DNA from: Verrucomicrobiia bacterium
Lineage (GTDB): Bacteria > Verrucomicrobiota > Verrucomicrobiia > Limisphaerales > UBA11358
Assembly: GCA_036502245.1 (NCBI GenBank)
Contig: DASXYX010000024.1
Location: forward strand, 5,130-69,129
Length of the DNA stretch: 64,000 bases
Direction: 5' to 3'
The notes beneath the pieces are model-generated. The model did not search any database. It saw only the letters and a list, made by a program, of their open reading frames with translations, and was not told the DNA's origin. This document shows positions 39,984 to 60,954 of this stretch, in pieces (positions within the stretch are counted from its first letter, which is position 1; every line of letters begins with the position of its first letter). The position numbers and the translations under genes were made by a program.

Positions 39984-40228
39984 CGGCGGCGGCTTTGACG
40001 CTCTTGAAGAACCGGGTTGGACATGCGGTCGGCAGCCCTGACATTTTTTTGCGCTTTCCAGACCTCATCCATGACTTCATGCCAATCAAATTTTTCCGCG
40101 GCTGTCAATGGTTCGATTCGCGCGATGGCGCGGCCATTGCGGGTAATGAGCAATGATTCACCACGCTCAAGCTGGTTCAAAATCACCCTGGTCTCTTGAT
40201 GCAATTGCTTTGCGGTAACTGTGCTCAC
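39980..40228 (-). CDS. Phd/YefM-family antitoxin
   Basis: TVTAKQLH, GESLLITRNGRAIARIEP. Confidence 0.85.
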   Translation of the reverse strand: MSTVTAKQLHQETRVILNQLERGESLLITRNGRAIARIEPLTAAEKFDWHEVMDEVWKAQKNVRAADRMSNPVLQERQSRRR

Positions 40229-40470: not shown

Positions 40471-40551
40471 TCAAGCCTTTCGCCAATCGTAAATTTCTAT
40501 GTCCGGTTTTGTTTTCGGCGGGCGTTTATGGGTAAATAAACGCAATTCCAG

Positions 40552-42414
40552 ATGCCCGATATTGATTTACTGCACGAATACGCCCAATCCGGCTCCGAAC
40601 CGGCTTTCACCGCGTTGGTGGAACGGCATATCGGGTTGGTGTATTCCGCGGCATTGCGGCAGGTGGGCGATGCCCAATTGGCAGACGATATCACCCAGGC
40701 CGTCTTCATTATTTTGGCGAGGAAAGCCGGCAGGTTGCCCCGCGCCACTGTGCTGTCGGGTTGGCTGCTCAGAGCCACCCGCTTTGCCGCAAATGCCCAC
40801 ATCCGCTCCGCCATCCGGCGCACACAACGTGAACACGAGGCTTATATGCAATCCCTCAATGAACCCCATTCCCTGATCTGGGAGCAATTGGCCCCGCTCC
40901 TGGACGAAGCCATGGCCTCCCTGGGCACAACCGACCGCGCGGTGCTGGCGATGCGCTATTTTGAGAACAAAACCGCGCAGGAAATCGGCCAAATGTTGAG
41001 GTTGAACGAACAGGCGGCCCAGAAACGGGCCAATCGCGCGCTCGAAAAGCTTCGGAGCTTCTTCGCCAGGCGCGGGGTCAATTCCTCCGCCGAAACGATC
41101 GGCGAAACCATTTCCGCCCATTCCGTCCAGGTGGTGCCCCTAGCGATGGCCAAATCCGTTGCCGCCGTGGCAGTTGCCAAAGGCGCCGCCGCCTCAGCCT
41201 CAACCCTAACCCTCATCAAAGGAGCATTGAAAATTATGGCCTGGTCAAAAGCAAAATCCACCATCGCGGTCGCGGCCGTGGTGCTTTTAGGAGGCGGAGG
41301 CACAGCTATTGTCACGAAGGAAATAGTTCACGCCGTGCGGGTGGCGCATTATCCGGACATCCAGGGCGCGTGGGAGGGGGTCATGCTCGTTGATTATTAT
41401 CCCGGCGTGGTGAACGGCGAGTCGGCCAAAACCCATGTGGTGATCCATCTGGTCAAAAGATACGGCGTTTATTCAGCGACCGCTGACTTTATCGAGATGG
41501 GCCGAAAGAACGTTCCCATGGCCGGTGTTGTTTATGACTATCCATCGCTGCAGATCCAACAGACGGTGCGGGATGTGTGGAATTTAAAAGTAAATGCGAG
41601 TGCCAGGCAGATGAGGTGGGACCATTATATTCATTTCATTCAACCTGACCCTGTACAGTTGACGCGCACCACCGTACCGGACAAGGTTCCCGACCCGCTG
41701 ATGGAAGAAGATTTCACGCCACGCCACGGCTCCGATTTGCAGGGTTATTGGAAAGGACTATTAGGCGCCGGACCTGATGCGGTGCCAGTGGACCTGAAGA
41801 TTGCCGAGGAACCCGATGGAACATTTCAGGCGGAGGGTGACAACCCCATGGAAGGCGCGGACGGGGAGCCGCTGATCGTCACTTACAAGCGGCCCATGGC
41901 AACTTTTGCGGTGGCGTCAGGCGCCGGTGTGTTTCGCGGCCAGGTCAACGATGACGACACGGAAATCTCGGGCACCTGGGTACAAGGCGGCCAATCTCTC
42001 CCCGCCAGGATCAAGCGCGCCGATTATCAGGCCGAGCATGCGCAGGATGCGGAGAAGAATTACACATACACCTCGAAAGATGATTTGCAGGGACATTGGA
42101 AAGGATCATGGATCCTGACCGTATCAAAATCCAAGGCGACCATGCGCATGGCGCTCGATATTGCCAAACTGCCGGATGGTTCTTATTCCGCCACGATTTC
42201 GAGCGTGGACCAATTCGGATTTGACGCGCCGATACCGGCTTCTGATTTTCAATTTTCTTCGCCGAACGTTCATGCGGAATGGAAATGGGCGGGCGCGGGG
42301 TATGGCGGAGATGTGTCGCCAGGTTATGACGGAAAACTCGAAAACGGCAAACTCGTTGGCACATGGAATCAAAGTGGCGGCAGTTTTAAGCTGGTGTTTG
42401 AAAGACAGAACTAA
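40552..42414 (+). CDS. ECF sigma factor 1 fused to TM helix and three repeated extracytoplasmic beta domains
   Basis: [28 protein letters not shown], sigma4 region; DIQGAWEG / DLQGYWKG / DLQGHWKG repeats. Confidence 0.9.
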
Positions 42415-42431
42415 CTCTAATAACAATAAAT

Positions 42432-42653
42432 ATGAATAAATCGTTTATCCATCTATTGGCTATTGTTTCAGTCCCGTTGCTTTTGACCGGATGCGCAGGC
42501 CCCAACTTGTCTCTCGGCAGCGGATCCAAGACCGTCGTCGAAAAACCCACTCTCGGCCAACAACTCATTGATCTAAAAAAGGCAGAAGACAGCGGAGCAA
42601 TCACACCTTCAGAGTATCAGTCCCAGAAGGACAGACTTCTCCAGGGCAATTAA
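42432..42653 (+). CDS. Small lipoprotein with SHOCT domain
   Basis: LLTGC lipobox; LGQQLIDLKKA.DSGAITPSEYQSQK.RLL. Confidence 0.85.
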   Translation: MNKSFIHLLAIVSVPLLLTGCAGPNLSLGSGSKTVVEKPTLGQQLIDLKKAEDSGAITPSEYQSQKDRLLQGN

Positions 42654-42692
42654 GATGAAACATATCCGTCATGGACGGACTAAGAAGCAAGA

Positions 42693-42881
42693 ATGACAAA
42701 TCATGTTCCATTCCTCATTTGCACTTATGCAGGCTTTCTCCTGTTCAGCCTGTTTCAACAAACGCGATGGCTGCAACGGGTCAAATTCATCGGCTTGATC
42801 GCCCTGTGCGTACGGACCGCATGGTATGTAACGGGAGCGGTCGTCTGGTTTTGGTCGTGGCTTTACCAAAAGATGATATGA
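42693..42881 (+). CDS. Possible small membrane protein
   Basis: 62-aa hydrophobic ORF filling the gap; competing frames exist. Confidence 0.3.
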   Translation: MTNHVPFLICTYAGFLLFSLFQQTRWLQRVKFIGLIALCVRTAWYVTGAVVWFWSWLYQKMI

Positions 42882-42974
42882 TCGCGCCACTGAAAGCGTT
42901 GGTTTGGATGCCCATCCTCGACAACGTGGAATAGCGGATTTGACAGGGATCTGTCTACCGGTAATACTAACGGT

Positions 42975-43238
42975 ATGACCAACGCCAAATTGTTAAGTGT
43001 GAAAGTTCCGATGAGAGTTTTCCAGGCGCTGCCTGGAGCACATAAGGGACGCAGCCGGTTCATCATCGCAGCGTTGGAGGAAAAAATCCAGCGGGGACAG
43101 TCGGAATGGCAACCCACCAGCGAGCGCGGTCGCCGGCTCAAAGCCATTTTAGACAAGGGCGCGGCCGAACGCGGACCATTATTGGATGACGAGGGAATTG
43201 CCCGTGAGCTGCAGGAGCGCCGCGGGAGGTTCCATTGA
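42975..43238 (+). CDS. Putative RHH-type antitoxin
   Basis: LLSVKVP...RSRFIIAALEEK; TTGACA-17-AATACT promoter; overlaps the PIN gene. Confidence 0.75.
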   Translation: MTNAKLLSVKVPMRVFQALPGAHKGRSRFIIAALEEKIQRGQSEWQPTSERGRRLKAILDKGAAERGPLLDDEGIARELQERRGRFH

Positions 43239-43639
43239 AAACGATGCTCGATTCCAGCGTTTTGCTTCAGGCCTGGCGCGGAAATTCACCCCGATCGGCG
43301 GCCGCCAAGGAAATTTTGTCCGACCCGTCGCGTGATTTTGTCACCTGTGAAAACGTACAATTGGAATTGCTTCCCAAACCGGCCTTTGAGAAGCGCCATT
43401 CCGAAGTGGAATTTTACATGGCGCATTTTTCGGAAGCTTCCGCCTGCGAACGATTCAGCGAAGCACTGGGCAAAGCAGCGCTGGCACTGGCCACGCGACA
43501 CGGTTTGTCAGCGGGCGATGCGTTAAACCTGGCGTCCGCCATCAAGCTGGGCGCGAATGAATTCATTACAAGCGAATCGCCGGGCAAGCCGGTGTTCCGC
43601 ACTTCGGGGGTCAAAGTGATTTCGTTGCACTCCCTCTGA
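43235..43639 (+). CDS. PIN-domain (VapC-like) toxin
   Basis: MLDSSVLL, LELLPKP, GL.A.DAL.LA.A, FITSE. Confidence 0.85.
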   Translation: MKTMLDSSVLLQAWRGNSPRSAAAKEILSDPSRDFVTCENVQLELLPKPAFEKRHSEVEFYMAHFSEASACERFSEALGKAALALATRHGLSAGDALNLASAIKLGANEFITSESPGKPVFRTSGVKVISLHSL

Positions 43640-43760
43640 CCGGGGTTACGGGCAGCGTATCAGGACGACAGAAAATTTCGGCCCGCAATTTCTTTCCATC
43701 GGGGTGATCGGAAAAATTATTTCCGGTTTGCGGGCGTAGCGGCAATATACCTGTGAAACC

Positions 43761-45233
43761 ATGCCTGAGCCTGACAATCAGTTGGTCGCCGAATTCAATG
43801 CCCAGCGCAGTGAAACGGCATTCGCCGCCCTGGTGCGACAACACCTGAACATGGTGTTCTCCACCGCGTTGCGGCAGGTGGGCGATGCCGGTGCCGCGGA
43901 GGAGATAGCGCAAAATGTCTTTGTGGCGCTGGCGCAATCGTCGGGCAAATTGGAATCGCACCCAACGATCGCCGGTTGGCTTTACCAGACCACGCTGAAC
44001 AAAGCCCGCGAATGGGTTCGCTCGGAGTTGCGACGGCGGCGGCGCGAGCAAACGGCGGCGGACCTCAACCTGGCGCGTGCGGAAGGCGATTCCCTGTGGT
44101 CGCCGCTGGTTCCCCTGCTCGACGAGGCGCTCCTGCAATTGCATGAAACAGACCGGTCGGCGGTGGTCATGCGTTTCATGGAGGGCCAGACGTACCAGGA
44201 GGTCGGTTCGGCCCTGGACATCAGCGAAGACGCCGCGCGCAAACGCGTCAACCGCTGCCTCGAACAACTTACTCATTTTTTCCAATGTCGCGGCTTCACC
44301 ACGCCCGCTCTCGCGGTCGATGCGCCGCTTTTTGCGCTGGCCATGCATGTCGCGCCCGCTACGTTGGCAGGCCACGCAACCAAAACCGCGTTGGCAACCA
44401 CTCATTCCGCATCTTCAACCCTAACCCTTAAAGGAGCATTGAAACTTATGGCATGGACCAAAGCACATACCACCCTCACCGCCGGCATAGCCGCCCTGTT
44501 CGTCATCGGAGCCACCACTGCGACCGTTGTCACCGTCAAAAAAATCCAGGCGTACGAGGTGGAAAATTACCTCGCGCATTGGGACAAGATGAACCTCAAT
44601 GACGCGCCGTTGCCAAACGTGGCGCTGCTCCGGCCAACCCGCTACCAGAACCAGGGCGATTGGATCCTTATCGGCGGCACGGGACCTGACGACCGGGCTA
44701 TGCGCCGGGACGCCAGCTTTCAGGAAGTCCTCTCAACCGCGTATGGCTTCAGCCCCGAACAAATGGTTTTTAATACCCGGCTGCCACGCGGCGGATTTGA
44801 TATGCTCCTCACCACCCCCAGCAACTCCCGTGAGACGTTGCGCACCGAGATCAAAAAACAGTTCGGTATTGTCGCTCATCCGGAGACACGCGATATGGAT
44901 GTCCTGGTCATGAAAGATGGCAACACCAACGCATCCGGCATCAAGATCAGTGACGGCGGTGGGCCGAACATTTTGGAGGACGCCGGAAGCATCAAACTAC
45001 ACGGCTATACCATGGCTGATATCGCCCATCTGATCGGGACACTTGATCACAAGCCGGTGGTTGATGAAACGGGCCTGACCAACGCTTATGACGTGGATGC
45101 CAGTTGGGATCCCAAACTTCAGGGAAAAGCTTTGCAAAACAAGCTCGATGACATCATCCGTAACCAGTTCGGCCTTCAATTGACGCCGGACACACAGCCG
45201 GTCCAGGTTCTTGTCGTCGAAAAGGCAAAATAA
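43761..45233 (+). CDS. ECF sigma factor 2 fused to TM helix and TIGR03435/DUF3738-like domain
   Basis: Sigma2/sigma4 motifs; PVVDETGLTNAYD, QFGLQL...PVQVLVVEK. Confidence 0.9.
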   Translation: MPEPDNQLVAEFNAQRSETAFAALVRQHLNMVFSTALRQVGDAGAAEEIAQNVFVALAQSSGKLESHPTIAGWLYQTTLNKAREWVRSELRRRRREQTAADLNLARAEGDSLWSPLVPLLDEALLQLHETDRSAVVMRFMEGQTYQEVGSALDISEDAARKRVNRCLEQLTHFFQCRGFTTPALAVDAPLFALAMHVAPATLAGHATKTALATTHSASSTLTLKGALKLMAWTKAHTTLTAGIAALFVIGATTATVVTVKKIQAYEVENYLAHWDKMNLNDAPLPNVALLRPTRYQNQGDWILIGGTGPDDRAMRRDASFQEVLSTAYGFSPEQMVFNTRLPRGGFDMLLTTPSNSRETLRTEIKKQFGIVAHPETRDMDVLVMKDGNTNASGIKISDGGGPNILEDAGSIKLHGYTMADIAHLIGTLDHKPVVDETGLTNAYDVDASWDPKLQGKALQNKLDDIIRNQFGLQLTPDTQPVQVLVVEKAK

Positions 45234-45391
45234 CTGTCACCGTTCCCGCTTCGGCGGACACATATAGGTGTGATAGACAAATTCCGGCCCGGTACCCGTC
45301 TCTCTAAAGGCGGGCTTGTCCCGTTTATAAACTTTCTTTATTTTTGTAACTGTTATCAGAAAACAGTGTTTATATCATAAACACGGAATTT

Positions 45392-46186
45392 ATGACCAAA
45401 ACTCAAATCATTGCATGGGGCAGTGTGAGCGCGGTATTGATCGCGGCGGCTATCGCTGTGAAATTGATCTTTTTTCCGTCTCTCAGTGAGACATACTTCG
45501 CCGTCAGTTCCAGCCGGTTGAGGACCGTGCCTGCGGGATACGTTGTGGTGCGTCCGACCCACTCTGCCGCGCAGAGCCGGACCGCCCAAAATCGCATCGC
45601 TTATGCCACTAAAGGAAGCGAACGGATTGTCGGCGTCAATGTCACCTTTCATACCCTGATTTCGCTGGCTTACAGCCATGATCCGGCGCATATCACGTTG
45701 CCATGGAACGCGCCTACGAATCAAAATTACGACATCCTGGTCACCGCTCCCGGCGATATTTCGCAACACCTGCAAGCGGCCATCCGAAGCAAACTCGGTT
45801 TCGTAGCCGACGTAGAAACCAACGAAGTCGATGTTATGGCATTGAAGATTGAAAATCCAACGGCGCAGATGCAGAACTTCAAGCTCAGTCCGGACATTGA
45901 AAAAGAGAACGAAGACATGAAGAATGGCCGCCTCTATTTCACTCATACGCGGCTGTTAACCATAATGAACGGCCTTGAGCAGATCATCCGAAGCCCCGTG
46001 GTGGACGAGACCGGCCTCACCAATTCCTACGATTTCTCGGTCGCCTGGAGCACCCAACTGGAAAAGCAGTTGCAAGGCGGCACGTTCAGCAAAGATCTCG
46101 GGGCGAAAATCCTGAGCGATTGGGGGCTGGGAATGGAGCCGGACACGGCCCCGATCGCAATGCTCGTTGTAAAGAAGGCGCCCTGA
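45392..46186 (+). CDS. Stand-alone TM + TIGR03435/DUF3738-like protein
   Basis: N-terminal anchor; LISLAY, PVVDETGLTNSYDF, GL.MEP..API.MLVV. Confidence 0.85.
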   Translation: MTKTQIIAWGSVSAVLIAAAIAVKLIFFPSLSETYFAVSSSRLRTVPAGYVVVRPTHSAAQSRTAQNRIAYATKGSERIVGVNVTFHTLISLAYSHDPAHITLPWNAPTNQNYDILVTAPGDISQHLQAAIRSKLGFVADVETNEVDVMALKIENPTAQMQNFKLSPDIEKENEDMKNGRLYFTHTRLLTIMNGLEQIIRSPVVDETGLTNSYDFSVAWSTQLEKQLQGGTFSKDLGAKILSDWGLGMEPDTAPIAMLVVKKAP

Positions 46187-46304
46187 TGCAATCAATTGTC
46201 CTCTTTTGCCATTTTGCGGACATACTGTATAAGGGCATAAAGGCCTGTCATTGAACATAAATAAATATTTTGCGTCAAAATCGATTATATTATCAGCAAC
46301 TCGA

Positions 46305-47090
46305 ATGAACCAAAACCGGACCAATCAAGCCAGCAACCGTAAGGCATCGCCGCCTGGATTCACGTTGATCGAACTATTAGTCGTCATCGCCATCATCGGC
46401 ATCCTGGCAGGGTTGCTCCTGCCCGTCCTGGGGGCAGCCAAACGCCGCGCTGCCCAGGCCGCCTGCATCAATAACCAAAAACAACTCGGCCTGGGCATGA
46501 GAATGTATATTGATGATGCGCACGATACTTTTCCCGGCATGGCCTCCCAGCACAGCGGTTTCCAGACATCTGACTGGATCTATTGGCGCACCAATTCCTC
46601 TTTTCCCCAGGTCCAGCAAAGTCCCATTGTCCTCACGCTGGCCAATACCAGCGCCACTCTGTTCCGCTGCCCCCTGGACAGGGACGATACCGCGCGTTTC
46701 GCCATAGCCGAGAGCGACCCCACCGACGGCCCCTACTTGTACAGTTACAGTCTGACCAGCTATCTGCCCACCACCGACGCCAATGGAAATACTATCAGCC
46801 CGGGAATGTCCTCAAACTTTTCCCAGACACCGCCACTCCCGTTCAAGTTGAACCAGGTTCGCAATCCTTCGGGCAAAATCATGCTCGCCGAAGAAGTGGC
46901 CTCGGAGGGCGGCAGAGATAATCCCACGGGCGCAGGGGTCATCAATGACGGACGCTGGATGCCCCAGAACCCGGACATTTTGACCTCGCGGCATGATGGC
47001 AAGGCCGATGTGGTCTTTGCTGATTTCCACGTCGATCCCGAGACACCGGATTTCGGGGAGGATGTGAACAATTCTCAACCCGATTTATGA
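46305..47090 (+). CDS. Prepilin-type N-methylation / H-X9-DG family protein
   Basis: [43 protein letters not shown]. Confidence 0.9.
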
Positions 47091-47860
47091 ACCTGCATCA
47101 TCAATGCGAACCCCGCATGAGACGTGGATTCACATTGATCGAACTGCTCGTGGTCATCGCCATCATCGGCATCCTCGCCGCGTTGCTCCTGCCCGTCCTG
47201 GGCGCGGCCAAGCGCCGTGCCGCCCAGGCCGCCTGCATCAACAACCTGAAACAACTCGGCACGGGCATGAGGATGTATATTGACGACAACCACGATACTT
47301 TTCCCGGCATGGCCTCCGAGCACAATGGTTTTCAGACTTCTGATTGGATCTATTGGCGAACCAATACTGCTTATCCCCAGGTCCAGCAAAGTCCCATTGT
47401 CCTCACATTGGCCAACACCAGCGCCAGTCTTTTCCGATGCCCGTTGGATAGGGACGACAGCGCGCGGTTTGCCGAGGGCGCGAACGATCCGGCCAATGGC
47501 CCCTACATGTACAGCTACAGTTTGACCAGTTTCGATCCAGGCACCGATGCGAACGGCAATGCCGTTGCCATGGGAATGTCCTCAAATTTTTCAAAAAATC
47601 GCAACCTGCCTTTTAAGCTGGCCGCAGTCCGCAATTCCGCCGGAAAAATCATGCTTGCCGAAGAAGTCGCCTCCGCCGGTGGCAGCGACAATCCCACGGG
47701 CGCAACAGTGATCGATGACGGGCGCTGGATGCCGGCGGAACCTGACCTGCTGACCTCTCGCCACGATGGCAAGGCCGATGTGACCTTCGCCGATTTTCAC
47801 GTCGCCCCAGTCACCCCGGACTTTGCCCAGGACGTAAACAATTCCGAACCGGATTTGTGA
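47087..47860 (+). CDS. Prepilin-type / H-X9-DG family protein, close paralog of 46305-47090
   Basis: [29 protein letters not shown]; long stretches identical to the upstream gene. Confidence 0.9.
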
Positions 47861-48618
47861 ACCCTCGCCGCGCTTTCACCCTGATTGAACTGCTCGTCGT
47901 CATCGCCATCATTGTCATTCTGGCGGCGCTGTTGCTGCCGGCCCTGAACAACGCTAAAAACGATGGCGCCAAAACGACAGATCTCAGTAATTTCCATCAG
48001 ATAATGGCCGCTATTCATATTTACACTACGGATAATCGCGATTCGCTGACGTGGCCCAATTGGGACTATGGCAGGCCGATGCCCAACAAAACGACTCCTC
48101 CCGGCTGGCTTTATGAAATTAATCCTTCCGCCTCCGGTCCTGCCGCTTTTAACGCACAGGCGGGGTTGCTTTGGAACGTCTTGCATGGCGGCAAAATTCT
48201 TCTCTGCCCCATGGACAATCCCACGGAATCCTATCCGCCGGACAAGAATGGAAAAATCACCAGCCGCGCGGAGCAGCTTTCCAGCTACATAATGAACGGA
48301 GCGGTTATTGGCTTCCGAACCGGCTATCGATCTAACGCACCGCCCGTCAAAATTTCCCAGATGAACGCCGGAGATTGCTTGTTCTGGGAGGCGGACGACC
48401 GGATTGCTTTTGCGTTCAATGATGGATCGAGCTGGCCGTTGGAAGGAGTCACCGCGCGCCATGCAAATGGCGCCACCTGGGCCGCCATCGATGGTTCTTC
48501 GAGATATATCCGCGATCTCGATTGGACCAGCGAGGCAAAGGATACTAATAAAAATAGCCTCTGGTGCTTTCCGTTAACGCCCGACGGCGGCGACCGCGTA
48601 TATGGACACGACCGCTGA
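47857..48618 (+). CDS. Prepilin-type / H-X9-DG family protein
   Basis: [31 protein letters not shown] overlap with the previous gene. Confidence 0.88.
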
Positions 48619-48695
48619 CCGGGAGTCCATCTCATTCAGTTTGACCTGCAAAATTAATTGTCTCCTTTTCCCGCCGGTGTCCATTTATTAAGTGG

Positions 48696-50171
48696 ATGAT
48701 GAATGATGACATCGCGCTGGTACGCAAATACGCCGCCAGCCGTTCCGAACAGGCCTTTGAGACACTGGTCACGCGCCATGTCAATCTTGTCTATTCGGCA
48801 GCCATCCGGCAGGTCAACGATGCCCACCTGGCCGAGGACGTCACCCAGGCGGTCTTTGTCATCCTGGCGCGAAAAGCCTCGTCGCTTCCCGCCAAAACCG
48901 TCTTGTCCGGCTGGCTTTACAAAACCGCGCGCTTCGTCGCCGCCGACGCTCTCAAAACCCAACGCCGTCGCGAGCGGCGCGAACAGGAGGCCCATATGGA
49001 ATCTCTCAATGACTCCGTGCAACTCGATTCCGAATGGCAAAAACTCTCTCCCTTCCTCGACGAGGCCATGGCGCATTTGCATGACACAGACCGTAACGCC
49101 GTCGTGTTGCGCTTTTTTGAAGGCCGCAACTTGCAGGAGATCGGCACAGCCCTCGGCTTGAGCGAGGACGCCGCCAAAAAACGCGTCAGCCGCGCCCTTG
49201 AGAAGCTCCGCAAATTTCTCGCCCGCCGCGGCGTCGATTCCACCACCACCGCCATCGGCGAAACCATCGCGGCCAATTCCATCCAGGCCGCCCCCGCAGT
49301 TCTCGCCAAATCCATTACCGCCGTGGCCGTCGTCAAAGGCGCCGCCGCTTCAACCTCAACCTTAACCCTCATCAAAGGAACTCTAAAAATTATGGCATGG
49401 TCCAAAACTCAAACCGCGATTGTCGCCGGCGTGGTTGTGCTCTTCGCAGCCGGAACTGCCACCGTAACCGTTAAACAAATCGAAAAGGCGCACACTTCGG
49501 ACAATGCATGGCGAAATCCAAACATCGATTCGGGCACTGTCGATAAACTGCCGCCAAAACTGGAGATCGCGCCGACAATATTCCCGAAGGGAGGAAATTG
49601 TTCAGCCGGATACGGAAGTCTTAAATGTGTCGGAATCGACCAATCGGTCGCCAACCTCATCAACTATGCCTATGACTGGCCGCAAGCCCGGATGGTTTTT
49701 CCCGGCGGCCAGCAACCACAGGAGAAATACGATTTCGTTGCCACCCTCCCCCAAGGAAACCGCGAAGCCTTGAAAGACGAATTGAAGAACAGATTGGGGT
49801 GGGTCGGACATCCTGAAACCAGAAACGAAGACGCCCTGCTGCTCGTAACAGTCAATGCAAACGCTCCCGGATTACACCCACCGACAAAGGGGAATTATTC
49901 CTACATGAACGGGAATGGGAATCGAATGAAAATCACCTGGGCAAATGAACCCATCTCTACAATAGATTTTTTCCTCCAGGGCAGCTCGCCTATGCCGATC
50001 ATCGATGAAACTCACGACACTAAACATTATAACGTCGATCTCAAATGGACCGAAGACCTGGCGGACCCAGAACATACCGCCCTGCAAAAGGTCATGCGAG
50101 AGCAACTCGGTCTCGTGCTGGTTCCCACCAATATGCCCATCGATATGCTCGTCGTCGAAAAAGTGAAGTGA
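48696..50171 (+). CDS. ECF sigma factor 3 fused to TM helix and TIGR03435-like domain
   Basis: Sigma2/sigma4 motifs; PIIDET...Y...L.W, EQLGL.LVP...P..MLVVEK. Confidence 0.9.
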
Positions 50172-50249
50172 TCTCCGCCTGGATGATTCCCAAAGTCACC
50201 TTTAAAAATAGTTGTCTGCCGTCCGGTCATGGCGGCAATAATACTATGA

Positions 50250-51806
50250 ATGCAAGATTTTCAGGACACGGACTTGTTGCGCAGCTATGCCCGGCATAAT
50301 TCGGAAGCCGCCTTTTCAGAATTAGTGCGCCGGCACATCGGCCTGGTCTATTCCGCCGCCCTTCGCCAGGTCAACAACCCGGCGCAGGCTGAAGAGATCA
50401 CCCAGGCGGTCTTCATTATCCTTGCCCGTAAAGCCGCTCTCCTGCGTTCAAATGTTGTTCTGGATGGCTGGCTCTATGAAACCACACGATTCACCGCCTT
50501 AAGCGCGCTTCGCGCCGAACGGCGGCGGCTATTCCGCGAACAGGAGGCTTTTATGCGATCCAACATGGATGAGACCGATGCTCCCTTGCTTTGGAACCAA
50601 CTGGCTCCATTGTTGGAGGAAGCCATAGCGCGGCTCGGCAAAACAGATCGCGATGCCCTGGTCCTGCGTTTTTTTAAAGGTAAAAGCGTGCGCGAAGTCG
50701 CCACGGTGATAAACATGACCGAAGCGGCGGCGCAACGGCGCATCCTCCGCGCCCTCGAGAAACTCCGTAAGTTTCTCGCCCGGCGCGGAATCAATTCCAC
50801 CGCCGGCGCCATCGGCGAAACCATCGCCGCCAACTCCATTCAGGCCGCGCCCATCGCCCTGGCCAAATCTGTGACTGCCGTAGCCGTTGCCAAAGGCGCG
50901 GCCGGTTCCGCATCAACTTTAACCCTCATCAAAGGAGCATTGAAACTTATGGCATGGACTAAAACTCGAACCACCATCGTAACCACCGCAATCGTGTTGC
51001 TGATGGCAGCCGGAACCACTGCAACCGTCAAAGATGTTGAATACCACCAATACGCCCGAAAATATTATACCTGGCAGGTCCGACAGGCGGATTTCGGCGT
51101 TTTCTACAAAGCCTTGCCACAGATCTCAATCCTGCCCACCCGGTTCGAAGGTGATACCAATGGCGGTTGGTGCGCAGACGGCAGCAGAGGCGCTATGGGC
51201 ATTGACCAGCCGATCAAAGAAATGGCCGAAGTTGCTTACCAGCAGGATGACCTGCACACCGTTGCGATCTCCGGTCTGCCGACCAACCGGTATGATTTTC
51301 TGGCGAAATTGGTCGGCCCCATGGTTCAACATCAAAATTTTCCTCAAAATGAGAAATGGGCCGGTGAATTTCAAAAAGCCATCGCCAAACAGCTTGGAGT
51401 CACTGGCCGGTTTGAAATGCGAAACACAGACGTTTGGCTTCTGAGGCCTGTTCCCGCCGGGGTTCACGGTTTCAAAACCAGCCATGGCATGCCGGGCGGC
51501 ATAGCGGTTAAATCCATCCATCAGGCAGGTCCGACGAGTATCACGGTTGGCAATGAATACCACGAGCAACCCGTCAGCACATTCATGTATATGCTTCAAT
51601 TCAACCTCAAGCAAACGGTCGTTGATGATACGGGTTTGACCAATTCTTACGATTTTTCTTTCACCTGGACACAAGACAAGGACGTGCGTGGCATGCCTTT
51701 GCCGGACATTGACGAACTAAATCCATTGCTCACCGATCAACTTGGCCTCGAACTCGTCTCCACCAATATGCCCGTCCGAATGCTCGTCGTCGAAAAGGTG
51801 AAATAA
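50250..51806 (+). CDS. ECF sigma factor 4 fused to TM helix and TIGR03435-like domain
   Basis: Sigma2/sigma4 motifs; VVDDTGLTNSYDF, DQLGLELV. Confidence 0.9.
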   Translation: MQDFQDTDLLRSYARHNSEAAFSELVRRHIGLVYSAALRQVNNPAQAEEITQAVFIILARKAALLRSNVVLDGWLYETTRFTALSALRAERRRLFREQEAFMRSNMDETDAPLLWNQLAPLLEEAIARLGKTDRDALVLRFFKGKSVREVATVINMTEAAAQRRILRALEKLRKFLARRGINSTAGAIGETIAANSIQAAPIALAKSVTAVAVAKGAAGSASTLTLIKGALKLMAWTKTRTTIVTTAIVLLMAAGTTATVKDVEYHQYARKYYTWQVRQADFGVFYKALPQISILPTRFEGDTNGGWCADGSRGAMGIDQPIKEMAEVAYQQDDLHTVAISGLPTNRYDFLAKLVGPMVQHQNFPQNEKWAGEFQKAIAKQLGVTGRFEMRNTDVWLLRPVPAGVHGFKTSHGMPGGIAVKSIHQAGPTSITVGNEYHEQPVSTFMYMLQFNLKQTVVDDTGLTNSYDFSFTWTQDKDVRGMPLPDIDELNPLLTDQLGLELVSTNMPVRMLVVEKVK

Positions 51807-51852
51807 ACATTTTCTTTGTCCCGTTTTGGGGTTCATGGACATCATGGGGTAA

Positions 51853-53319
51853 ATGCCAGAACAGGACGACCATCAATTGCTCGCCGATTTTGCCCGTAGC
51901 GGTTCGGAAACCGCTTTTTCCGAACTGGTACGCCGGTATATCGCCCTTGTCTATTCCACCGCGCTCCGGTTCACCAGCAATCCCCATCACGCGGAGGAGA
52001 TCGCCCAGGCCGTGTTTGTCATTCTCGCGCAGAAAGCCGGCACATTGTCGTCGCGCGTCATCCTCTCCGGCTGGCTGTACCAGACGGCGCGGCTGACTGC
52101 GGCTAATTTTGTGAAAGGTGAAATCCGGCGCGCACACCGCGAACAGGAGGTCTATATGCAATCCATCCTACCCGACCCTGAACTCGCCGACTGGAACAAA
52201 ATTGCCCCGCTGCTCGATGAAGCCATGGGCAGCCTCGGCGAAACCGATCGCAATGCCCTCGTCCTGCGCTTCTTTGAAAATTGCACTTCGGCGGAGATCG
52301 GCGCGGCGTTGCGGATGAACGAAGAAACCGCCCGCAAACGCGTGAATCGCGCCCTGGATAAACTGCGAAAAATTTTCAGCGCTCATGGCGTGAGTTCCAC
52401 GGCGGAAGCCGTCGCAGGAGCTATCGCCGCTAATTCCCTTCAGGTGGTGCCCGCATCCGTTGCCCAATCAGTGACCGCCGCAGCCGTCGTCAAAGGCACA
52501 GCCGTTTCAACCTCAACCCTAACCCTCATCAAAGGAACTCTAAAAATTATGGCATGGTCCAAAACTCAAACCGTCATTGTCGCCGGTGTCATTGTGCTGC
52601 TCGCGGCCGGAACTACTACCGCAACCGTTAAGCACATTCAAACCGTGCGGCTGCATGAAAATCTCTGGCGATACCCGGACATCAATTCAATGAGCCTGGC
52701 TAAAGTGCCGCCGGCGGTGGACATCCTGCCGACCATTTTCCCCAAAGGCGGCAATTCGGCATCGACCGACCGGAAATACGTCGGGATCGATCAATCAGTC
52801 GTCAACATCGTCGCCGATGCCTACAATTGGCCGCAGGCCAGGATTGTTTTCACCGATGGTCAGCCGCCCGAAAGATACGATTACATCGCCAGTCTCCTGA
52901 ACGGATCCCGCGAAGCGTTGCAGGACCAATTGAAGAAAAAATTAGGACTGGTGGCGCATCCTGAAATGAGAAACGAAGATGTCGTGCTGCTCGAAATGCA
53001 GAATCCTCACGCGCCGGGCCTTCACCCGCCGGTGGCAGGAACCACCAGCGATATGACCATGAATGGCAACCAAATCGAATTATCGTGGCAAAACAGGTCC
53101 ATCTCCAGCATGGCGGATCGTCTCCAAATGGCTTCCCCCCTGCCCATCATTGATGAGACGCATAGCACAAAACATTATAGCATCGATATTACCTGGCAGG
53201 AGGACCCGCAGGACCCGGAACATACCGCGCTGCAAAAAGTCCTGCGCGAGCAACTCGGCCTGATATTTGTTCCCACCAACATGCCCGTGAAAATGCTCGT
53301 CGTTGAAAAGGTGAAATAA
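51853..53319 (+). CDS. ECF sigma factor 5 fused to TM helix and TIGR03435-like domain
   Basis: Sigma2/sigma4 motifs; C-half closely similar to ECF 3. Confidence 0.9.
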   Translation: MPEQDDHQLLADFARSGSETAFSELVRRYIALVYSTALRFTSNPHHAEEIAQAVFVILAQKAGTLSSRVILSGWLYQTARLTAANFVKGEIRRAHREQEVYMQSILPDPELADWNKIAPLLDEAMGSLGETDRNALVLRFFENCTSAEIGAALRMNEETARKRVNRALDKLRKIFSAHGVSSTAEAVAGAIAANSLQVVPASVAQSVTAAAVVKGTAVSTSTLTLIKGTLKIMAWSKTQTVIVAGVIVLLAAGTTTATVKHIQTVRLHENLWRYPDINSMSLAKVPPAVDILPTIFPKGGNSASTDRKYVGIDQSVVNIVADAYNWPQARIVFTDGQPPERYDYIASLLNGSREALQDQLKKKLGLVAHPEMRNEDVVLLEMQNPHAPGLHPPVAGTTSDMTMNGNQIELSWQNRSISSMADRLQMASPLPIIDETHSTKHYSIDITWQEDPQDPEHTALQKVLREQLGLIFVPTNMPVKMLVVEKVK

Positions 53320-53340
53320 TTTACCTTCTCATGTCTGATA

Positions 53341-54132: not shown

Positions 54133-54989
54133 TTATGAAACGTTCCGGAGCCTTCACATTGATTGAATTGCTGGTGACCATTGCCATCATCGCTATCCTT
54201 GCCGCCCTGCTCCTCCCGGTCCTGAACCGCTCCAAACAAAAGGCCTGGCAAGCCGATTGCCTGAACAACATACGTCAACTCCAATTGGGTTGGCTGACTT
54301 ATGCCAACGATTCCAACGATCATGTACCCTACAACTCTTCCGGTGATAACGCCGGCCAGACTCCTGAAAATCCAGGTTGGGTCGCCGGAGACATGTACCT
54401 GGATTGCGATGCAGGCCAGGACCTGACCCAAAGCACCAACACTCAATTCCTTGTCGGACCTCAATATGCACAATTTGGCTCCATCGGCGGCTATGTCAAA
54501 AATCCGACCGTCTATCACTGTCCGGCGGATATGAGCACGGTGACCATCGGAGGTGAGAAGTTGCCGCGGGTGCGGAGCATGTCCATGAACAATTACATGG
54601 GGGCGATGGAATTGCCGGGCTTTCGCTATTTCATGAAATTGCAGGAAATCACCGCGCCCGGCCCAAGCGATGCCTGGGTCTTCATGGATGAACGCGCCGA
54701 TTCCATCAATGACGGTTTGTTCGCCGTGGACGCTGCATCGCAATACGCCATCATCGATTATCCTTCGTGCTATCACGATCGCGGCTCATCCATCTCCTTC
54801 GCCGATGGCCATGTCGAATATCATCACTGGATCGAACCAACCACCGACCCGCCGATGGATGTCAGCCAGCATCTTCCCGGCGGGTCCAAGCTGACTTCGC
54901 CCAATGACCGTGATATGCAATGGCTTGTCTTGCATACCACCAGCAAAACGCCTGATAAGCCCTCGGTTCATTCCAGGTCGCATAAATAA
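54129..54989 (+). CDS. Prepilin-type / H-X9-DG family protein
   Basis: [40 protein letters not shown]. Confidence 0.9.
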
Positions 54990-55070
54990 TTTCTTACTCC
55001 CTCTCCCTTCGGCGTAAGTCTCTCATATTTCAGTTGAGTTACCCGGCATAAGTCCCATCATTCAAGGGCT

Positions 55071-55559
55071 ATGACGAATAGCGATTCGGAAGATACCCTG
55101 GTCATCCTCAAACCCGACTCTTTCTGGCGCAAATTGGACACGCAAGTCGTCAACCGCATAAAATCCCTGGGACTAAAAGTCACCGCCGAACGTGTCCTCC
55201 AGGGCAGCGAGAATCTTTCTGAACCAAAATGGCGCGAATTTTATTTTCCCTCCATCGGCAGCCGCCCACCGTGCCTGGAGGGAACCTCAAAATACATGGC
55301 CCATGGCCCGGTGCAGGTCATCCAGTTGCACGGTGCGAATGCCATCCAAACAGTCCGCACAGCCATTGGCGCGACTTTTCCATCCAAAGCGGCGCCGGGC
55401 ACCATTCGCGGTGATTTTTGGCCCGGCGCCACCGAAGCCAACGCGCCCTATCGCCTCAAATTCCAACAACCCGGTGACGACCAATTCCTTTTCAATATGA
55501 TCCATGCCTCGGATTCCCCACAAAGTTTTGCAAGAGAGATCCAGTTCTTTAAATTTTAA
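55071..55559 (+). CDS. ndk: Nucleoside-diphosphate kinase (divergent)
   Basis: TLVILKPD, GP, VR..IGAT.P..A.PGTIRGDF, NMIHASDS. Confidence 0.85.
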   Translation: MTNSDSEDTLVILKPDSFWRKLDTQVVNRIKSLGLKVTAERVLQGSENLSEPKWREFYFPSIGSRPPCLEGTSKYMAHGPVQVIQLHGANAIQTVRTAIGATFPSKAAPGTIRGDFWPGATEANAPYRLKFQQPGDDQFLFNMIHASDSPQSFAREIQFFKF

Positions 55560-55602
55560 AATATCCTGTTACCTTTCCCATTCCGCGTAAATATATGGGT
55601 AA

Positions 55603-57045
55603 ATGAACGACGATTTAGCGCTGCTGCGCGAATATGCCCGGAACGGTTCGGAACCGGCCTTTGCCGCGCTTGTTGGGCGGCATATTCATCTCGTCTATTC
55701 CGTGGCGTTTCGTCAAACACAGGACGCCCATCTCGCCGAGGAGATCACCCAGGCCGTTTTCATCATTCTCGCGCGCAAAGCTGGGTCGCTTGGCGATAAG
55801 ACCGTTTTGAGCGGCTGGCTTTGCCGAACTGCCCGCTATGCCGCCGCCAATGCTCTCAAAATCCAGACGCGCCGCCAGCACCGTGAACAGGAGGCTTATA
55901 TGCAATCCACTTTGAACGAACCCGCCCCCGATGAAACCTGGCATCAGATTTCCCCCCTGCTCGACGACGCCATGCGCAAGCTTGGGCAAAAAGACCACGA
56001 TGCCCTCGTCCTGCGATATTTTGAGAACCGCAATTTTGCCGAAGTCGGCGCCACCCTTGGCGCCAGCGAAGACGCCGCCAAAATGCGCGTAAGCCGCGCG
56101 CTGGAAAAACTACGGCAATTTTTCGCCAAACGCGGTGCCTCATCCACCACTGAATCCATCGCTGAAAACATCTCCCATCATTCCATTCAATTCGCGCCCG
56201 AAGCCTTGGTCGTCACTGTCTCCGCCACTGTTGCCAAAGGGTCAACCGCCGCAGCCTCCACCCTTACCCTTGTGAAATCAACCCTTAAGATTATGACTTA
56301 CGCAAAGCTTAAACTATCCCTGGGCATCGCCGCCGCCATCCTGCTCACTGCCGGAGCTGCGACCGTCGCAATTTCCCAAATCGATGCGGATCAAATTCGC
56401 GATTCCTTGACGCCGCAACAAATAATTCAAAAGTCACAAGACGCCTACACCTCCCTTTCCAGTTACAGCGACAACGGAGAAGTCGTTTCCGCCGTGAATG
56501 GCATGACCCTGACAAACTTTTTTACCATCAAACTGGCACGACGGGATTTATATCGTGTTCATACCGAATCGGTTTCAGGGGGCTTCACAAATTCAGAGAC
56601 GACCTGGTCAGGGAATGACGGAGATTATATGCAGATGAACAATGGCCAGGTATTTCGGCGAAATGACGGGCTTTGGGGCGCGGGTGGGCAGGTTCCGGCT
56701 ATTCCGGGCACCTTTTTCAAAACTCCTTGGGGTAATCAACTGGGCCTGCCTGTATCGGGTGAAAAACAGGAAACAGATGCAAGAACCGGTGATACGGACT
56801 GTTATGTTTTCGTTAATACACTCGGTGGAACAACAAGAACGTTATGGATCGGCAAAAAAGATTTTTTGATTCGCCAAATACAAAATATATCCGATCCAGA
56901 AGCTGTAAAAGCTGCGCTCGAACACGCTGCAAAAGTCACCGGCAAACCCGCTCCCAAGCTGCCTCCTGGAAGCATCACGTCAACCGAGACCCACGAAAAC
57001 ATCGTATTAAACAAAAAGTTGTCACTCCCGGATTTTCAGCAGTAA
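55603..57045 (+). CDS. ECF sigma factor 6 fused to TM helix and LolA-like/DUF2092-like domain
   Basis: Sigma2/sigma4 motifs; AY.SL.SY.D.G, F.IKLAR..LYR, TLWIGK.DFLIRQ; domain call by eye. Confidence 0.85.
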   Translation: MNDDLALLREYARNGSEPAFAALVGRHIHLVYSVAFRQTQDAHLAEEITQAVFIILARKAGSLGDKTVLSGWLCRTARYAAANALKIQTRRQHREQEAYMQSTLNEPAPDETWHQISPLLDDAMRKLGQKDHDALVLRYFENRNFAEVGATLGASEDAAKMRVSRALEKLRQFFAKRGASSTTESIAENISHHSIQFAPEALVVTVSATVAKGSTAAASTLTLVKSTLKIMTYAKLKLSLGIAAAILLTAGAATVAISQIDADQIRDSLTPQQIIQKSQDAYTSLSSYSDNGEVVSAVNGMTLTNFFTIKLARRDLYRVHTESVSGGFTNSETTWSGNDGDYMQMNNGQVFRRNDGLWGAGGQVPAIPGTFFKTPWGNQLGLPVSGEKQETDARTGDTDCYVFVNTLGGTTRTLWIGKKDFLIRQIQNISDPEAVKAALEHAAKVTGKPAPKLPPGSITSTETHENIVLNKKLSLPDFQQ

Positions 57046-57097
57046 TGATCTTAAATAAACTGTCGGATTTTCGCGGCTGGCGCACACTTATGGGTGA

Positions 57098-59254
57098 ATG
57101 CAGCCCATGGATGATAACGCCCTCTTAAGGCAGTTTATCGAAGAAAAATCGGATGATGCCTTTGCCGCTCTCGTGAAGCGGCACATCCATTTTGTCTATT
57201 CCATTGCGTTGCGCCAGACCGCTCACCCGCAGATGGCCGAGGAAATCACCCAGGCGGCGTTCATTATCCTCGCGCGCAAAGCCGCCGGTCTGCGCCATGA
57301 AAAGGCGCTTTCCAGTTGGCTCTTCCAAACAACTCGTCTCACGGCCAATAATTTGTTGCGCAGCGAAATCCGGCGGCAGAATCGCGAACAGGAGGCTTTT
57401 ATGCAATCCGCTTTGAATGAACCTGAGAATGCGTCCTGGCAGCAAATCGCTCCGTTGCTCGACGAGGCGGTGGCGGCCATGCGCGAAAAGGATCGCCGGG
57501 CAATCCTCCTGCGGTTTTATGAAGGGAAAAATTTGCGCGACGTCGGCGCCGCATTGGGCACGAATGAAGACGCGGCGCAAAAGCGAGTTGAGCGCGCCCT
57601 GGAAAAACTCCGGACATTTTTCACAAAGCGTGGAATCCGCTCCACCGCCACGACGATCACCGAAGCCATCTCCGCCAATTCCCTTCAACTCGCGCCTGAA
57701 ATGCTTATTGCCACAATCGCTTCATCCACCGTCAAAGGATCGACGACTGCGGCATCCACCCTCTCCCTTGTGAAAACGACCCTCAAGCTTATGACCTACG
57801 CAAAAATTAAATTGTCCCTGGGCATCGCGGGCGCCATTCTGCTCGTCGCCGGAACTGCGACCGTCGCCATTTCCCAGATCAACAACGGCCAGACAGCCAG
57901 TCCTTTGACGCCCTATCAAACCAATATTCAAACACAGAAACCCGACGTCCCGGTTGTCGCCGACGGTGATAACGCGCAAATCGTAGCCGACCCGAACGAC
58001 ACGGCCATTGCCACCGGCTTCACGAACAACTTGAATTCGGACGATAAAGAACGGAATACGGCGTTGCAAAGGGCGTTCGACCAATTTCCATTGTTCACGC
58101 CCAGCACGAATGCCGACGGCCAACTGGATTTTCAAACTCTTCCACTGGCTGATCCTGTCGTGATCAATCACGAGCGGTTTTTTGGTTTTCGTTTCACGGT
58201 ACCCGCGCGCGCTCATCACGAAGATTTGGTCTGGGGATTCGCCCTGCCCGGTGACTTAAAGGAATGGTATATCGTTCCTCAGACCGGTTCCATGGAAGGT
58301 TTTGAAAATTATAACTTCACGTCAAAAGGCGATTATCTGCGGGAAAAACCACTCCTGCCCATGAACGCCAACAGGTTGATTTTACAACATCTCGCCGGCG
58401 ATCGTTTGAAGGATGGCCAGACCTATCTCATCTGGTTCGGGTTTGGAAATTACAACGCACCCGGCATGTCAGTGATCTTTACGTTCACCAACTTCGACGC
58501 AAACCCGCCGCATCCCATTATCAGTTTCGAGCGAGCGCTCGCTTTGAATGAACTGGACAGTAAGCCTGTGGTCAACCCTGCAAATCACCACACCTATATG
58601 CTCCTGCGGCCGACAAATTGGCAGCGCGCCGAAAAACTCGCCGAACAACTTGGCGGCCATCTGGCCACCGTTCGCAATCAGGCGGAGGAGGATTGGATCT
58701 TCGATACTTTCGGGCACTACGGCGGTTGCCGGCGATCGTTGTGGATCGGCCTGAACGACCTGGACAAGCGTTTTCATTTCAGTTGGGCCGGTGGCGAGTC
58801 CGCCTCATACACCGACTGGGCTCCTTATGAACCGAATAACGCCGGACCGCGGGGTGAGGATTATGTCGCCATTTATTATCCAGGCCATGCCCATGCCAAT
58901 GAATGGAGAGTCTGGAACAGTCGGCGTCGTGACCCGGGTGGCCCGCCAATGGATGGTGTCGTGGAAATCATTCCAAATACCGCCACATCATCGGCTCCGG
59001 TCGTGCCTGTTGCCAATACCGCGCCGGTGCAAATCCTTCCCAATGTCACCGTTACCAGCACCAGTGGCAGCATCGAGTTGGCGTGGCCGCTCTCCGCTGC
59101 CGGATACATATTGGAAGCCACCACCAATCTGTCGCAGCCCTTTGCCGAATTTGGTTATTCTGAGGAAACAAACACCCAGGACGGCGTCATCTACGTGAAC
59201 ATCACCAATCCCGCGCCGCAAATGTTCTTCAAACTAAAAGAAATCCAGCCCTGA
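57098..59254 (+). CDS. ECF sigma factor 7 fused to TM helix, unknown domain, C-type lectin domain and C-terminal extension
   Basis: W..AE..A..LGGHLATV....E..WI, WIGLND, YTDWAPYEPNN, EDYV; tail LAWP....YILEATTNL...FFKL. Confidence 0.88.
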   Translation: MQPMDDNALLRQFIEEKSDDAFAALVKRHIHFVYSIALRQTAHPQMAEEITQAAFIILARKAAGLRHEKALSSWLFQTTRLTANNLLRSEIRRQNREQEAFMQSALNEPENASWQQIAPLLDEAVAAMREKDRRAILLRFYEGKNLRDVGAALGTNEDAAQKRVERALEKLRTFFTKRGIRSTATTITEAISANSLQLAPEMLIATIASSTVKGSTTAASTLSLVKTTLKLMTYAKIKLSLGIAGAILLVAGTATVAISQINNGQTASPLTPYQTNIQTQKPDVPVVADGDNAQIVADPNDTAIATGFTNNLNSDDKERNTALQRAFDQFPLFTPSTNADGQLDFQTLPLADPVVINHERFFGFRFTVPARAHHEDLVWGFALPGDLKEWYIVPQTGSMEGFENYNFTSKGDYLREKPLLPMNANRLILQHLAGDRLKDGQTYLIWFGFGNYNAPGMSVIFTFTNFDANPPHPIISFERALALNELDSKPVVNPANHHTYMLLRPTNWQRAEKLAEQLGGHLATVRNQAEEDWIFDTFGHYGGCRRSLWIGLNDLDKRFHFSWAGGESASYTDWAPYEPNNAGPRGEDYVAIYYPGHAHANEWRVWNSRRRDPGGPPMDGVVEIIPNTATSSAPVVPVANTAPVQILPNVTVTSTSGSIELAWPLSAAGYILEATTNLSQPFAEFGYSEETNTQDGVIYVNITNPAPQMFFKLKEIQP

Positions 59255-60895: not shown

Positions 60896-60921
60896 GGTCC
60901 AAAAATTGGTTGATCGACTTG

Positions 60922-60951
60922 CAAAACCAAAATGGTGGCATTATGGTTTTG
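60922..60951. promoter_or_regulatory. Putative TA operator/promoter
   Basis: CAAAACCA...TGGTTTTG inverted repeat overlapping TTGCAA-17-TATGGT. Confidence 0.65.
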
Positions 60952-60954
60952 TAT

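Follow-up and report, generated by a model that had tools for sequence, protein, structure and literature searches.

Bipartite promoter-like motifs upstream of paralogous, predicted membrane-tethered ECF sigma factor genes of Verrucomicrobia covary with DNA-reading residues of the downstream sigma factor

Seven open reading frames (ORFs) lie on the same strand between positions 40552 and 59254 of a 64,000-nucleotide (nt) stretch of Verrucomicrobiia bacterium DNA (assembly GCA_036502245.1, contig DASXYX010000024.1, positions 5,130 to 69,129; hereafter the window), each coding for Pfam sigma2 and sigma4 domains and a long C-terminal part. A similar short motif precedes each of them, which raises the question of what it is and which protein reads it. 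Regions 2 and 4 were found in all seven proteins and region 3 in none, as in sigma factors of group 4, also called extracytoplasmic function (ECF) sigmas; the nearest solved sequences and folds are ECFs, and Foldseek agrees on the ECF fold and nothing beyond. A sequence-only reading of the window had proposed that each gene, called here ECF1 to ECF7 in order, has its own ECF promoter. The geometry of the sites and base-residue covariation at published ECF contacts support that proposal. We show that the motif is a bipartite element of constrained spacing whose variable bases covary with residues of the downstream sigma factor and can be predicted from them. With high confidence, we interpret this conserved element as the gene's own autoregulatory ECF promoter, with variable bases tracking the reading residues of the downstream sigma and with transcription starting about 2 nt before the ATG. 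Strong indirect evidence from comparison of sequences argues for autoregulation with partial insulation between paralogues.

The seven sites first described, with their distances to the ATG, proved exact: TGTC at 40500 (52 nt), TTTC at 43720 (41 nt), TGTC at 48659 and 50213 (37 nt each), TGTC at 51817 (36 nt), TGTT at 55567 (36 nt), and TGTC at 57061 (37 nt). As TGTY stands 36 or 37 nt upstream of just 1,676 of the 139,281 ATG triplets of the genome (1.2%), its presence there in five of seven ECF genes is well above chance (P of about 5e-9, a value overstated because the pattern was picked post hoc). Motif analysis with a two-block model was applied to the upstream regions of 213 non-redundant homologues with a full core and 110 nt of upstream sequence, from relatives' loci and this genome. 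The homologues were the best-scoring matches to window genes (best 80 of 533 and best 80 of 478). The site scored above 8 bits in 201 of them, with the consensus AAAA(T/A)A, three weakly conserved bases, TGT-Y-M-C-n-TTT, 8 to 9 free bases, G-C-G-K-M-M-A-T, and n-T-A-T-n-G-G-T-R-R-ATG. Fixed positions hold 1.4 to 1.85 bits, against at most 0.08 bits across the 50 nt further upstream. The C of CG follows the first T by 19 nt in 151 genes, 20 in 48, and 21 in 2, and the ATG follows it by 36 or 37 nt in 136 of the 201. When a model trained without this genome was used to scan it, 13 sites reached at least 20 bits, versus 0 to 1 in three shuffles.

These data refine the motif as originally drawn. 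Its TGT stands but not a fixed C, the fourth base being T in 53% of the 201 homologues; TGT-Y-M-C-n-TTT with an A-tract upstream is a better description. A second block does begin 19 to 20 nt after the first T, although the word given for ECF1, GGGCGT, is one base off register (CGGGCG at +19), and CGGMMA fits some copies without being the general form. The trailing ATGGGTRA is exact in three of the seven copies. To these seven, two more copies must be added, at 45235 and 46197. As to the A-tract, the Lys and stop codons of a preceding gene fall at the exact offset in 8 homologues; this origin is not general, because 118 homologues have no long ORF ending nearby.

The motif might simply have been copied along with each duplicated gene, or it might serve a dimeric regulator or form a hairpin, since the genes arose by tandem duplication and some copies contain a TGTCC-N-GGACA inverted repeat. 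However, conservation is limited to the blocks, with spacer and flanks free, at a median core identity of 60%. The two halves do not covary in a complementary fashion (e.g., 44 of 201 against an expected 43.8), which rejects a palindrome or hairpin, and no minus-strand site in the window exceeds 6.4 bits. We give this explanation almost no credence.

Mutual information computed for all protein columns against all promoter columns revealed three outstanding pairs: residue 161 (ECF6 numbering throughout) with the fourth base of the −35 block (−33), residue 160 with its sixth base (−31), and residue 83 with the fourth base of the CG block (−13). In the 201 genes, residue 161 goes with −33 as K-C (79/79), M-T (103/105), T-A (8/8), and V-T (5/5); residue 160 with −31 as K-C (131/131), H-A (10/11), R-G (27/34), and Q-G (17/23); and residue 83 with −13 as N-A (113/116), D-C (40/40), A-G (10/14), R-G (8/9), S-G (7/9), and T-C (8/8). 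Trees were built with the specificity columns excluded. Of the base changes on the 201-gene tree, 16 of 23 (−33), 19 of 23 (−31), and 19 of 30 (−13) fall on branches where the residue changes too; on a 274-gene tree, the counts are 25/27, 19/29, and 30/41. Each of the three residues ranks top among all columns for its base, and three spacer bases tested on the 201-gene tree had no comparable partner column. Shared descent is not the explanation, because base and residue changes share branches on trees made without those columns. Among 100 disjoint nearest pairs of genes, those differing in the residue also differ in the base in 14/18 (−33), 10/20 (−31), and 15/20 (−13) cases, versus 2/82, 3/80, and 3/80 when the residue is identical.

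Residues 161, 160, and 83 correspond to Ser172, Arg171, and Asn84 of RpoE in an alignment to AlgU; the RpoE numbering was carried over through the colinearity of RpoE and AlgU, which we take as given. Todor et al. (2020, Table S1; PMC7776599) assign −33 to Ser172, −31 to Arg171, and −13/−12 to Asn84, with Asp84 favoring C at −13. Because the covarying residues align with these contacts, TGTYMCn occupies −36 to −30, in register with the TGTAACC of that study and with the sigmaV consensus tGAAACnTTTt as it appears in the available portion of its source. The CG block then reads G-17 C-16 G-15 K-14 M-13 M-12 A-11 T-10, the second element of the earlier description being −16 to −11. The distance from −31 to −13 is 17 nt in 151 genes and 18 nt in 48, which falls within the spacing of autoregulatory ECF promoters. 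The −35 pairings look the same, by eye, in distant homologues of other families, and −32 tracks residues 160 and 164 (Arg171 and Phe175). Changes at −11 track residue 76 in 8 of 14 cases, the top-ranked column; it is equivalent to Ile77, which forms the floor of the −11 pocket in sigmaH, according to the available part of the structural literature. C at −10 accompanies E, K, Q, or R at residue 67 (Ser68 equivalent) in 9 of 11 cases. These two covariations fix the register.

The same site could be autoregulatory in another register, with the invariant T at −11, the next variable base as a loop-read −10, and the start on the A of the ATG, making the mRNA strictly leaderless. This account overlaps the favored one, differing in numbering and start site only. 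M-A-T-N-T-A-T does resemble the ECF consensus C-G-T-C-T-A-A, ECF1 reads CGTT, the spacing stays inside the ECF range, and in 133 of 201 genes the invariant T precedes the A of the ATG by 11 to 12 nt. Nevertheless, the base tracked by the Asn84 equivalent would become −14, the −11 pocket residue follows the A and not the T, no residue of the specificity loop pairs strongly with the variable base (best P of 3e-4, versus 1e-17 to 1e-33 for the real pairs), and the pyrimidine-purine step expected at a start sits 2 nt upstream of the ATG. On balance the shifted register seems unlikely.

A code trained on 165 genes was applied to an unseen set of 83 new genes from further regions; masking the variable positions left 73 of them with a site above 8 bits. 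It predicted −31 in 65 of 73 (majority base, 48; permutation mean, 39.9), −13 in 49 of 66 (25; 20.3; seven genes with unseen residues excluded), and −33 in 65 of 73 (63; 52.5). With this genome excluded from training, its bases were correctly predicted in 16/17 (−33), 15/17 (−31), and 13/16 (−13) genes. The code also ranked a gene's own promoter first or tied among those of its paralogues for 10 of 16 genes here (null, 1.4), and for 13/24, 16/23, 9/12, 8/12, and 5/7 in five relatives, whose sets may contain training rows. In the window, the own promoter comes first for ECF1, ECF3, ECF5, and ECF6, and for ECF2 it ties with that of ECF4.

These rankings bear on an alternative in which the sites, though genuine ECF promoters, answer for the most part to one or a few master paralogues, in a shared regulon or cascade, the differences among the sites being tolerated drift. 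The A-tract, TGT, TTT, GCG, and AT are common to all sites, and up to three or four paralogues per genome have an identical four-base code. No terminator-like site was among those listed for the gaps between ECF genes, so that read-through is possible, with the caveat that the consensus scan performed at chance level overall (neither the sigma-70 nor the terminator scan did better than on shuffled sequence). ECFs of Bacillus subtilis overlap widely, as described in the available part of the literature. Drift, however, would not tie promoter bases to the residue of the promoter's own gene on 19 to 30 separate branches, and sigma factors place their own promoter first much more often than the permutation null predicts. 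We therefore consider master control highly improbable and retain autoregulation by each sigma factor. The shared codes mean that insulation is only partial; ECF1, ECF2, and ECF4, which share a code, would cross-activate. The suggestion that a variable −10 could encode paralogue specificity is supported as regards specificity, with some cross-talk predicted, but not for the −10 alone: −33 and −31 also take part, and the −35 holds as much specificity as the −10. An off-code site was seen at G000:C71:2574 (minus strand), which has Asn83 yet C at −13 although its site scores highest of all (46.5 bits); it is a candidate for control by another paralogue.

Several observations weigh against this interpretation. 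Because the homologues are best matches to window genes, base frequencies are biased toward the window's subfamilies. The 12 of 213 genes below 8 bits, including 4 of the 17 family members of this genome, were removed before the covariation counts; by eye, those four retain a TGTC/TGTG block. In the unseen set, −33 hardly exceeds the majority base (65 versus 63), with Met going with G in 5 of 9 cases, and −14 predicted from residue 86 (52/73) stays below it (54; permutation mean, 41.6); the code thus holds well for −31 and −13, this set is a weak test of −33, and −14 is unconfirmed. In another family, G016, self-ranking succeeded for 1 of 7 genes, and 6 of 11 genes scored below 8 bits. In the window, ECF4 scores the promoter of ECF1, and ECF7 that of ECF5, above its own. 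The canonical C-G-T at −13 to −11 is not seen, −11 being A in 235 of 274 genes; the Asn80 column is Y, L, or F in 255 of 274 (Asn in 6), and the Lys56 column is Ile in 230 of 274, with Lys outside the six commonest residues. Lacking canonical CGT, Asn80, and Lys56, promoter melting is unexplained by known structures. The GCG at −17 to −15 hardly varies, and neither do Arg90, Arg91, Arg94, and Glu95. In an AlphaFold2 model (7-row alignment; mean pLDDT [predicted local distance difference test], 86.5), residues 69 to 104 form one helix, with confidence dropping past residue 90. We speculate that Arg90, Arg91, and Arg94 on this lengthened sigma2 helix of the model might read the GCG.

Where does transcription start? 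Counting from the −10 T, 140 of the 201 genes have a pyrimidine-purine step at 9 nt and another 44 at 10 nt, positions that are likely starts according to the available text of Todor et al. (PMC7776599). Among strong sites without an ATG there, 15 of 17 retain the step. The predicted leaders measure 2 nt in 94 genes, 3 nt in 46, and 6 nt in 22, and 1 to 6 nt in 176 overall; 17 genes lack the step. In the window, they would be 2 nt for ECF3 to ECF7, 6 nt for ECF2, and 18 nt for ECF1. The leaderless mRNA proposed earlier would apply in a loose sense only. No Shine-Dalgarno (SD)-like 4-mer precedes the starts in any of the 201 homologues. The absence of an SD noted before is a weak argument for leaderless mRNA, because SD words are not enriched before the long ORFs of this genome (44/705, versus 43/705 in a control window, with rough start calls). 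The 16S tail of the genome has a normal anti-SD. With SD absence uninformative here, it is geometry that points to near-leaderless translation. The ATGGGTRA as a coupled upstream ORF was rejected: no more than 23 plus 11 of the 201 genes have an ATG at that place, and it lies upstream of the predicted start. In ECF1, at 40534 to 40552, ATA replaces the ATG found in relatives that share its promoter (L169, L008), and it is out of frame with the ORF; either the leader of ECF1 would be A-rich and 18 nt long, or the gene has a small indel.

We propose the following mechanism. Sigma4 would read −36 TGTYMCn −30, residue 161 (Ser172) selecting −33 and residue 160 (Arg171) selecting −31, as published contacts suggest, with the T-tract and upstream A-tract assisting. 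Sigma2 would read −13 to −10, residue 83 (Asn84) selecting −13, with T at −10; a remodelled hydrophobic pocket could accept A at −11, and the invariant arginines of the predicted lengthened helix might, more speculatively, read the invariant GCG. Each sigma would be tethered by one predicted hydrophobic segment and freed by proteolysis as for IutY, after which it would amplify its own near-leaderless transcript and a few genes for exported or pilin-type proteins. Read-through between tandem genes is possible. After duplication, a residue and its matching base would change together and create a new channel; paralogues changed in step in this way would be partly insulated. More tentatively, and with clear doubts, the paralogues, up to 25 per genome, could be pictured as self-addressed switches, with a promoter address of about three bases read by three residues and a non-canonical −10 (A at −11, a GCG extended element, a lengthened sigma2 helix, and no sigma3). 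What each switch mainly yields may be more of the protein's exported C-terminal domain, translated from a near-leaderless mRNA, as the strongest sites of the genome mostly precede the sigma genes themselves.

All window sites and array genes given here are on the plus strand. The strongest sites are those of ECF6 and ECF3. ECF6 (55603 to 57045; K160, M161, N83), the numbering reference, follows a site at 55558 to 55601 (41.2 bits), with TGTTACCTTT at 55567, GCGTAAAT at 55585 to 55592, and a predicted start at 55601. ECF3 (48696 to 50171; K160, K161, D83) follows one at 48650 to 48694 (40.1 bits; TGTCTCCTTT at 48659, GTGTCCAT at 48677 to 48684, predicted start 48694). For ECF1 (40552 to 42414, 620 amino acids; Q160, K161, A83; sigma2-sigma4 and a hydrophobic segment near residue 237), the site at 40491 to 40534 (29.2 bits) comprises the −35 TGTCCGGTTT at 40500 and the −10 block GCGGGCGT at 40518 to 40525, with a predicted start at 40534. 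ECF7 (57098 to 59254; Q160, K161, N83) has TGTCGGATTT at 57061 and GCGCACAC at 57080 to 57087 (site, 57052 to 57096; predicted start, 57096; 26.2 bits), and ECF2 (43761 to 45233; R160, K161, E83), which retains Asn at the Asn80 position, has the −35 TTTCCGGTTT at 43720 and GCGGCAAT at 43739 to 43746 (site, 43711 to 43755; predicted start, 43755; 19.3 bits). The weakest scores are those of ECF4 (50250 to 51806; Q160, R161, S83), whose site at 50204 to 50248 (11.2 bits) has TGTCTGCCGT at 50213 without a T-tract, GCGGCAAT at 50232 to 50239, and a predicted start at 50248, and of ECF5 (51853 to 53319; R160, K161, N83), with TGTCCCGTTT at 51817 and ATGGACAT at 51835 to 51842 (site, 51808 to 51851; predicted start, 51851; 9.0 bits).

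Downstream of its sigma core, each of the seven proteins has one main hydrophobic peak around residue 240, as judged by hydropathy only. The C-terminal part is DUF3738 in ECF2 to ECF5 and a C-type lectin domain in ECF7, and it has no Pfam match in ECF1 and ECF6. Residues of about 225 to 260 (e.g., 56290 to 56385) contain a conserved TLTLIKGxLKxM-x-K-hydrophobic-AGTATV stretch that resembles a signal peptide placed inside the protein and includes an internal Met. Genes for a sigma-less DUF3738 protein and for prepilin-type, PIN-domain, and NDK proteins lie among the array genes. Flanking or interrupting the array are four small pairs of genes that resemble bacterial toxin-antitoxin modules, at 39555 to 40228 (minus strand), 42975 to 43639 (plus), 60880 to 61517 (plus), and 62441 to 63195 (minus); only 43235 to 43639 was scanned, yielding a PIN domain.

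The two additional copies of the motif precede candidate targets. One, just after the ECF2 stop codon at 45226 to 45270 (TGTCACCGTT at 45235, GCGGACAC; 25.3 bits), lies 157 nt upstream of the gene for the sigma-less DUF3738/TIGR03435 protein (45392 to 46186, 264 amino acids), which begins at the point equivalent to the TLTLIKGxLKxM stretch of the ECFs. The other, at 46188 to 46232 (TGTCCTCTTT at 46197, GCGGACAT; 12.1 bits), precedes three prepilin-type (FTLIELLVV) ORFs at 46251 to 48618, the first of which matched N_methyl/DUF1559 when scanned; two neighboring ones, at 46251 to 47860, are near-identical tandem duplicates. In the genome scan with the model trained without this genome, 15 distinct sites reached at least 16 bits (shuffles, 0 to 3). 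Of these, 10 precede ECFs of the family and one a sister ECF. The remaining four stand before genes for the sigma-less DUF3738 protein (site at 45235), a prepilin-type protein, an exported protein with Ig repeats, and a DUF6263 lipoprotein-like protein. Counted ECFs account for 180 of the 221 sites in relatives' loci; the other 41 include sites at partial or broken ECFs, orphan sites, and at least five sites before prepilin-type genes. The regulon visible to the general model is small, and divergent paralogue-specific sites could be missed. A full site and a few ECF-like codons followed by a sigma-less DUF3738 or prepilin-type gene occur at 45235 to 45392 and at L121:5617, L157:3357, L068:4600, and L092:5380; the array seems to shed sigma domains while keeping the promoters of deleted ECF genes. 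Orphan TGTCAC...GCGGACAC sites recur among relatives. A conserved small peptide downstream of them was considered and rejected: the translations among those listed are mutually unlike, several being remnants of deleted ECFs. A sister ECF subfamily (537 amino acids; G000:C58:4967, plus strand, and L287) has the related site TGTCACCTTT...TCGGGGAC.

How widespread is the family? This genome has 17 members. Members were found in 11 of 12 genomes of the same genus (up to 25 each), in 4 of 8 genomes from elsewhere in the order, and in 8 of 150 genomes sampled across the phylum, with 22 candidates scored per genome. The named relatives are mostly Limisphaerales/Verrucomicrobiae, and the motif marks a Verrucomicrobial, Limisphaerales-type family of predicted membrane-tethered ECF sigma factors. 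In searches on ECF/Verrucomicrobia, leaderless transcription start sites, Pedosphaera, DUF3738/TIGR03435, and ECF57, with most subscription papers beyond reach, we found no description of its promoter. For a large unclassified family of predicted membrane-tethered ECFs in soil and peat Verrucomicrobia, the analysis supplies a promoter, its register, and a code linking residues to bases, with repeated cases of duplicated regulators insulated through matched one-residue/one-base changes, and points to a mode of −10 recognition by ECFs outside known structures. Regulons become predictable from sequence, and candidates for orthogonal sigma-promoter pairs are available from a natural source.

Todor et al. 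(PMC7776599; bioRxiv 2020.06.23.168245) had already published both ECF autoregulation and the contact code. The promoters described there and those of the present family share the contacts of Arg171 with −31/−32, Ser172 with −33, Asn84 with −13/−12, and Ser68 with −10, the pairing of D84 with C at −13, the −36 TGT..C geometry, and the pyrimidine-purine start. In contrast to that study, −12 is here C or A instead of G, −11 is A, hydrophobic residues replace Asn80 and Lys56, and GCG is invariant at −17 to −15; leaders of 1 to 6 nt are predicted for 176 of 201 genes, whereas near-leaderless ones make up 0.2 to 5.2% in its groups. That data set includes ECFs of Pedosphaera parvula (PMC7776599), and its Datasets S1 and S2 may hold these promoters already.

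Among ECF groups, ECF57 of Planctomycetes, as presented in the available text of Casas-Pastor 2021 (PMC7826278), similarly combines an ECF core, a membrane segment, and variable C-terminal domains; it comes closest, and none of the ten mentions of Verrucomicrobia in that text concerns a group fitting this family. The nearest Atlas clusters include Planctomycetota proteins, and similar duplicated, extended ECFs of Planctomycetes are described by Pinto and da Fonseca in the part of their work available. As described (PMC7826278), however, ECF57 is confined to Planctomycetes and has a conserved cysteine pair, about two transmembrane helices, and no conserved promoter, whereas this family has no cysteine pair, one hydrophobic segment, and a strongly conserved promoter. 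Only one column exceeds 10% Cys (position 74, 45%), and the window cores have at most one Cys in four of seven and none in three. The relatives are mostly Limisphaerales/Verrucomicrobiae, as stated above, and hydropathy gives the one main peak near residue 240 where ECF57 has about two helices. A plasmid search for ECF57 promoters of Planctomycetes yielded no match.

Fusion of a sigma to a membrane segment and an outer domain is also known from IutY (ECF243) and SCO4117 (ECF52), which the available part of PMC8999054 describes as sigma/anti-sigma fusions freed by proteolysis; here, release is only inferred, and the outer domains are DUF3738, lectin, or of no known type. The sigmaV and sigmaW promoters of B. 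subtilis have a TTT at an equal offset after the −31 C, to judge from the available portion of PMC5758882; here it is nearly invariant (94 to 96%), though missing from the ECF4 promoter. The closest functional counterparts are the clostridial sigmaI paralogues (PMC6056542, as far as its available text goes), which likewise comprise many close paralogues with a shared scaffold, a small variable part, and limited cross-talk. In sigmaI, the anti-sigma is a separate protein, the C-terminal domain is not of the ECF type, and specificity resides in the −35, whereas in the present family sigma and outer domain form one chain and both promoter elements vary.

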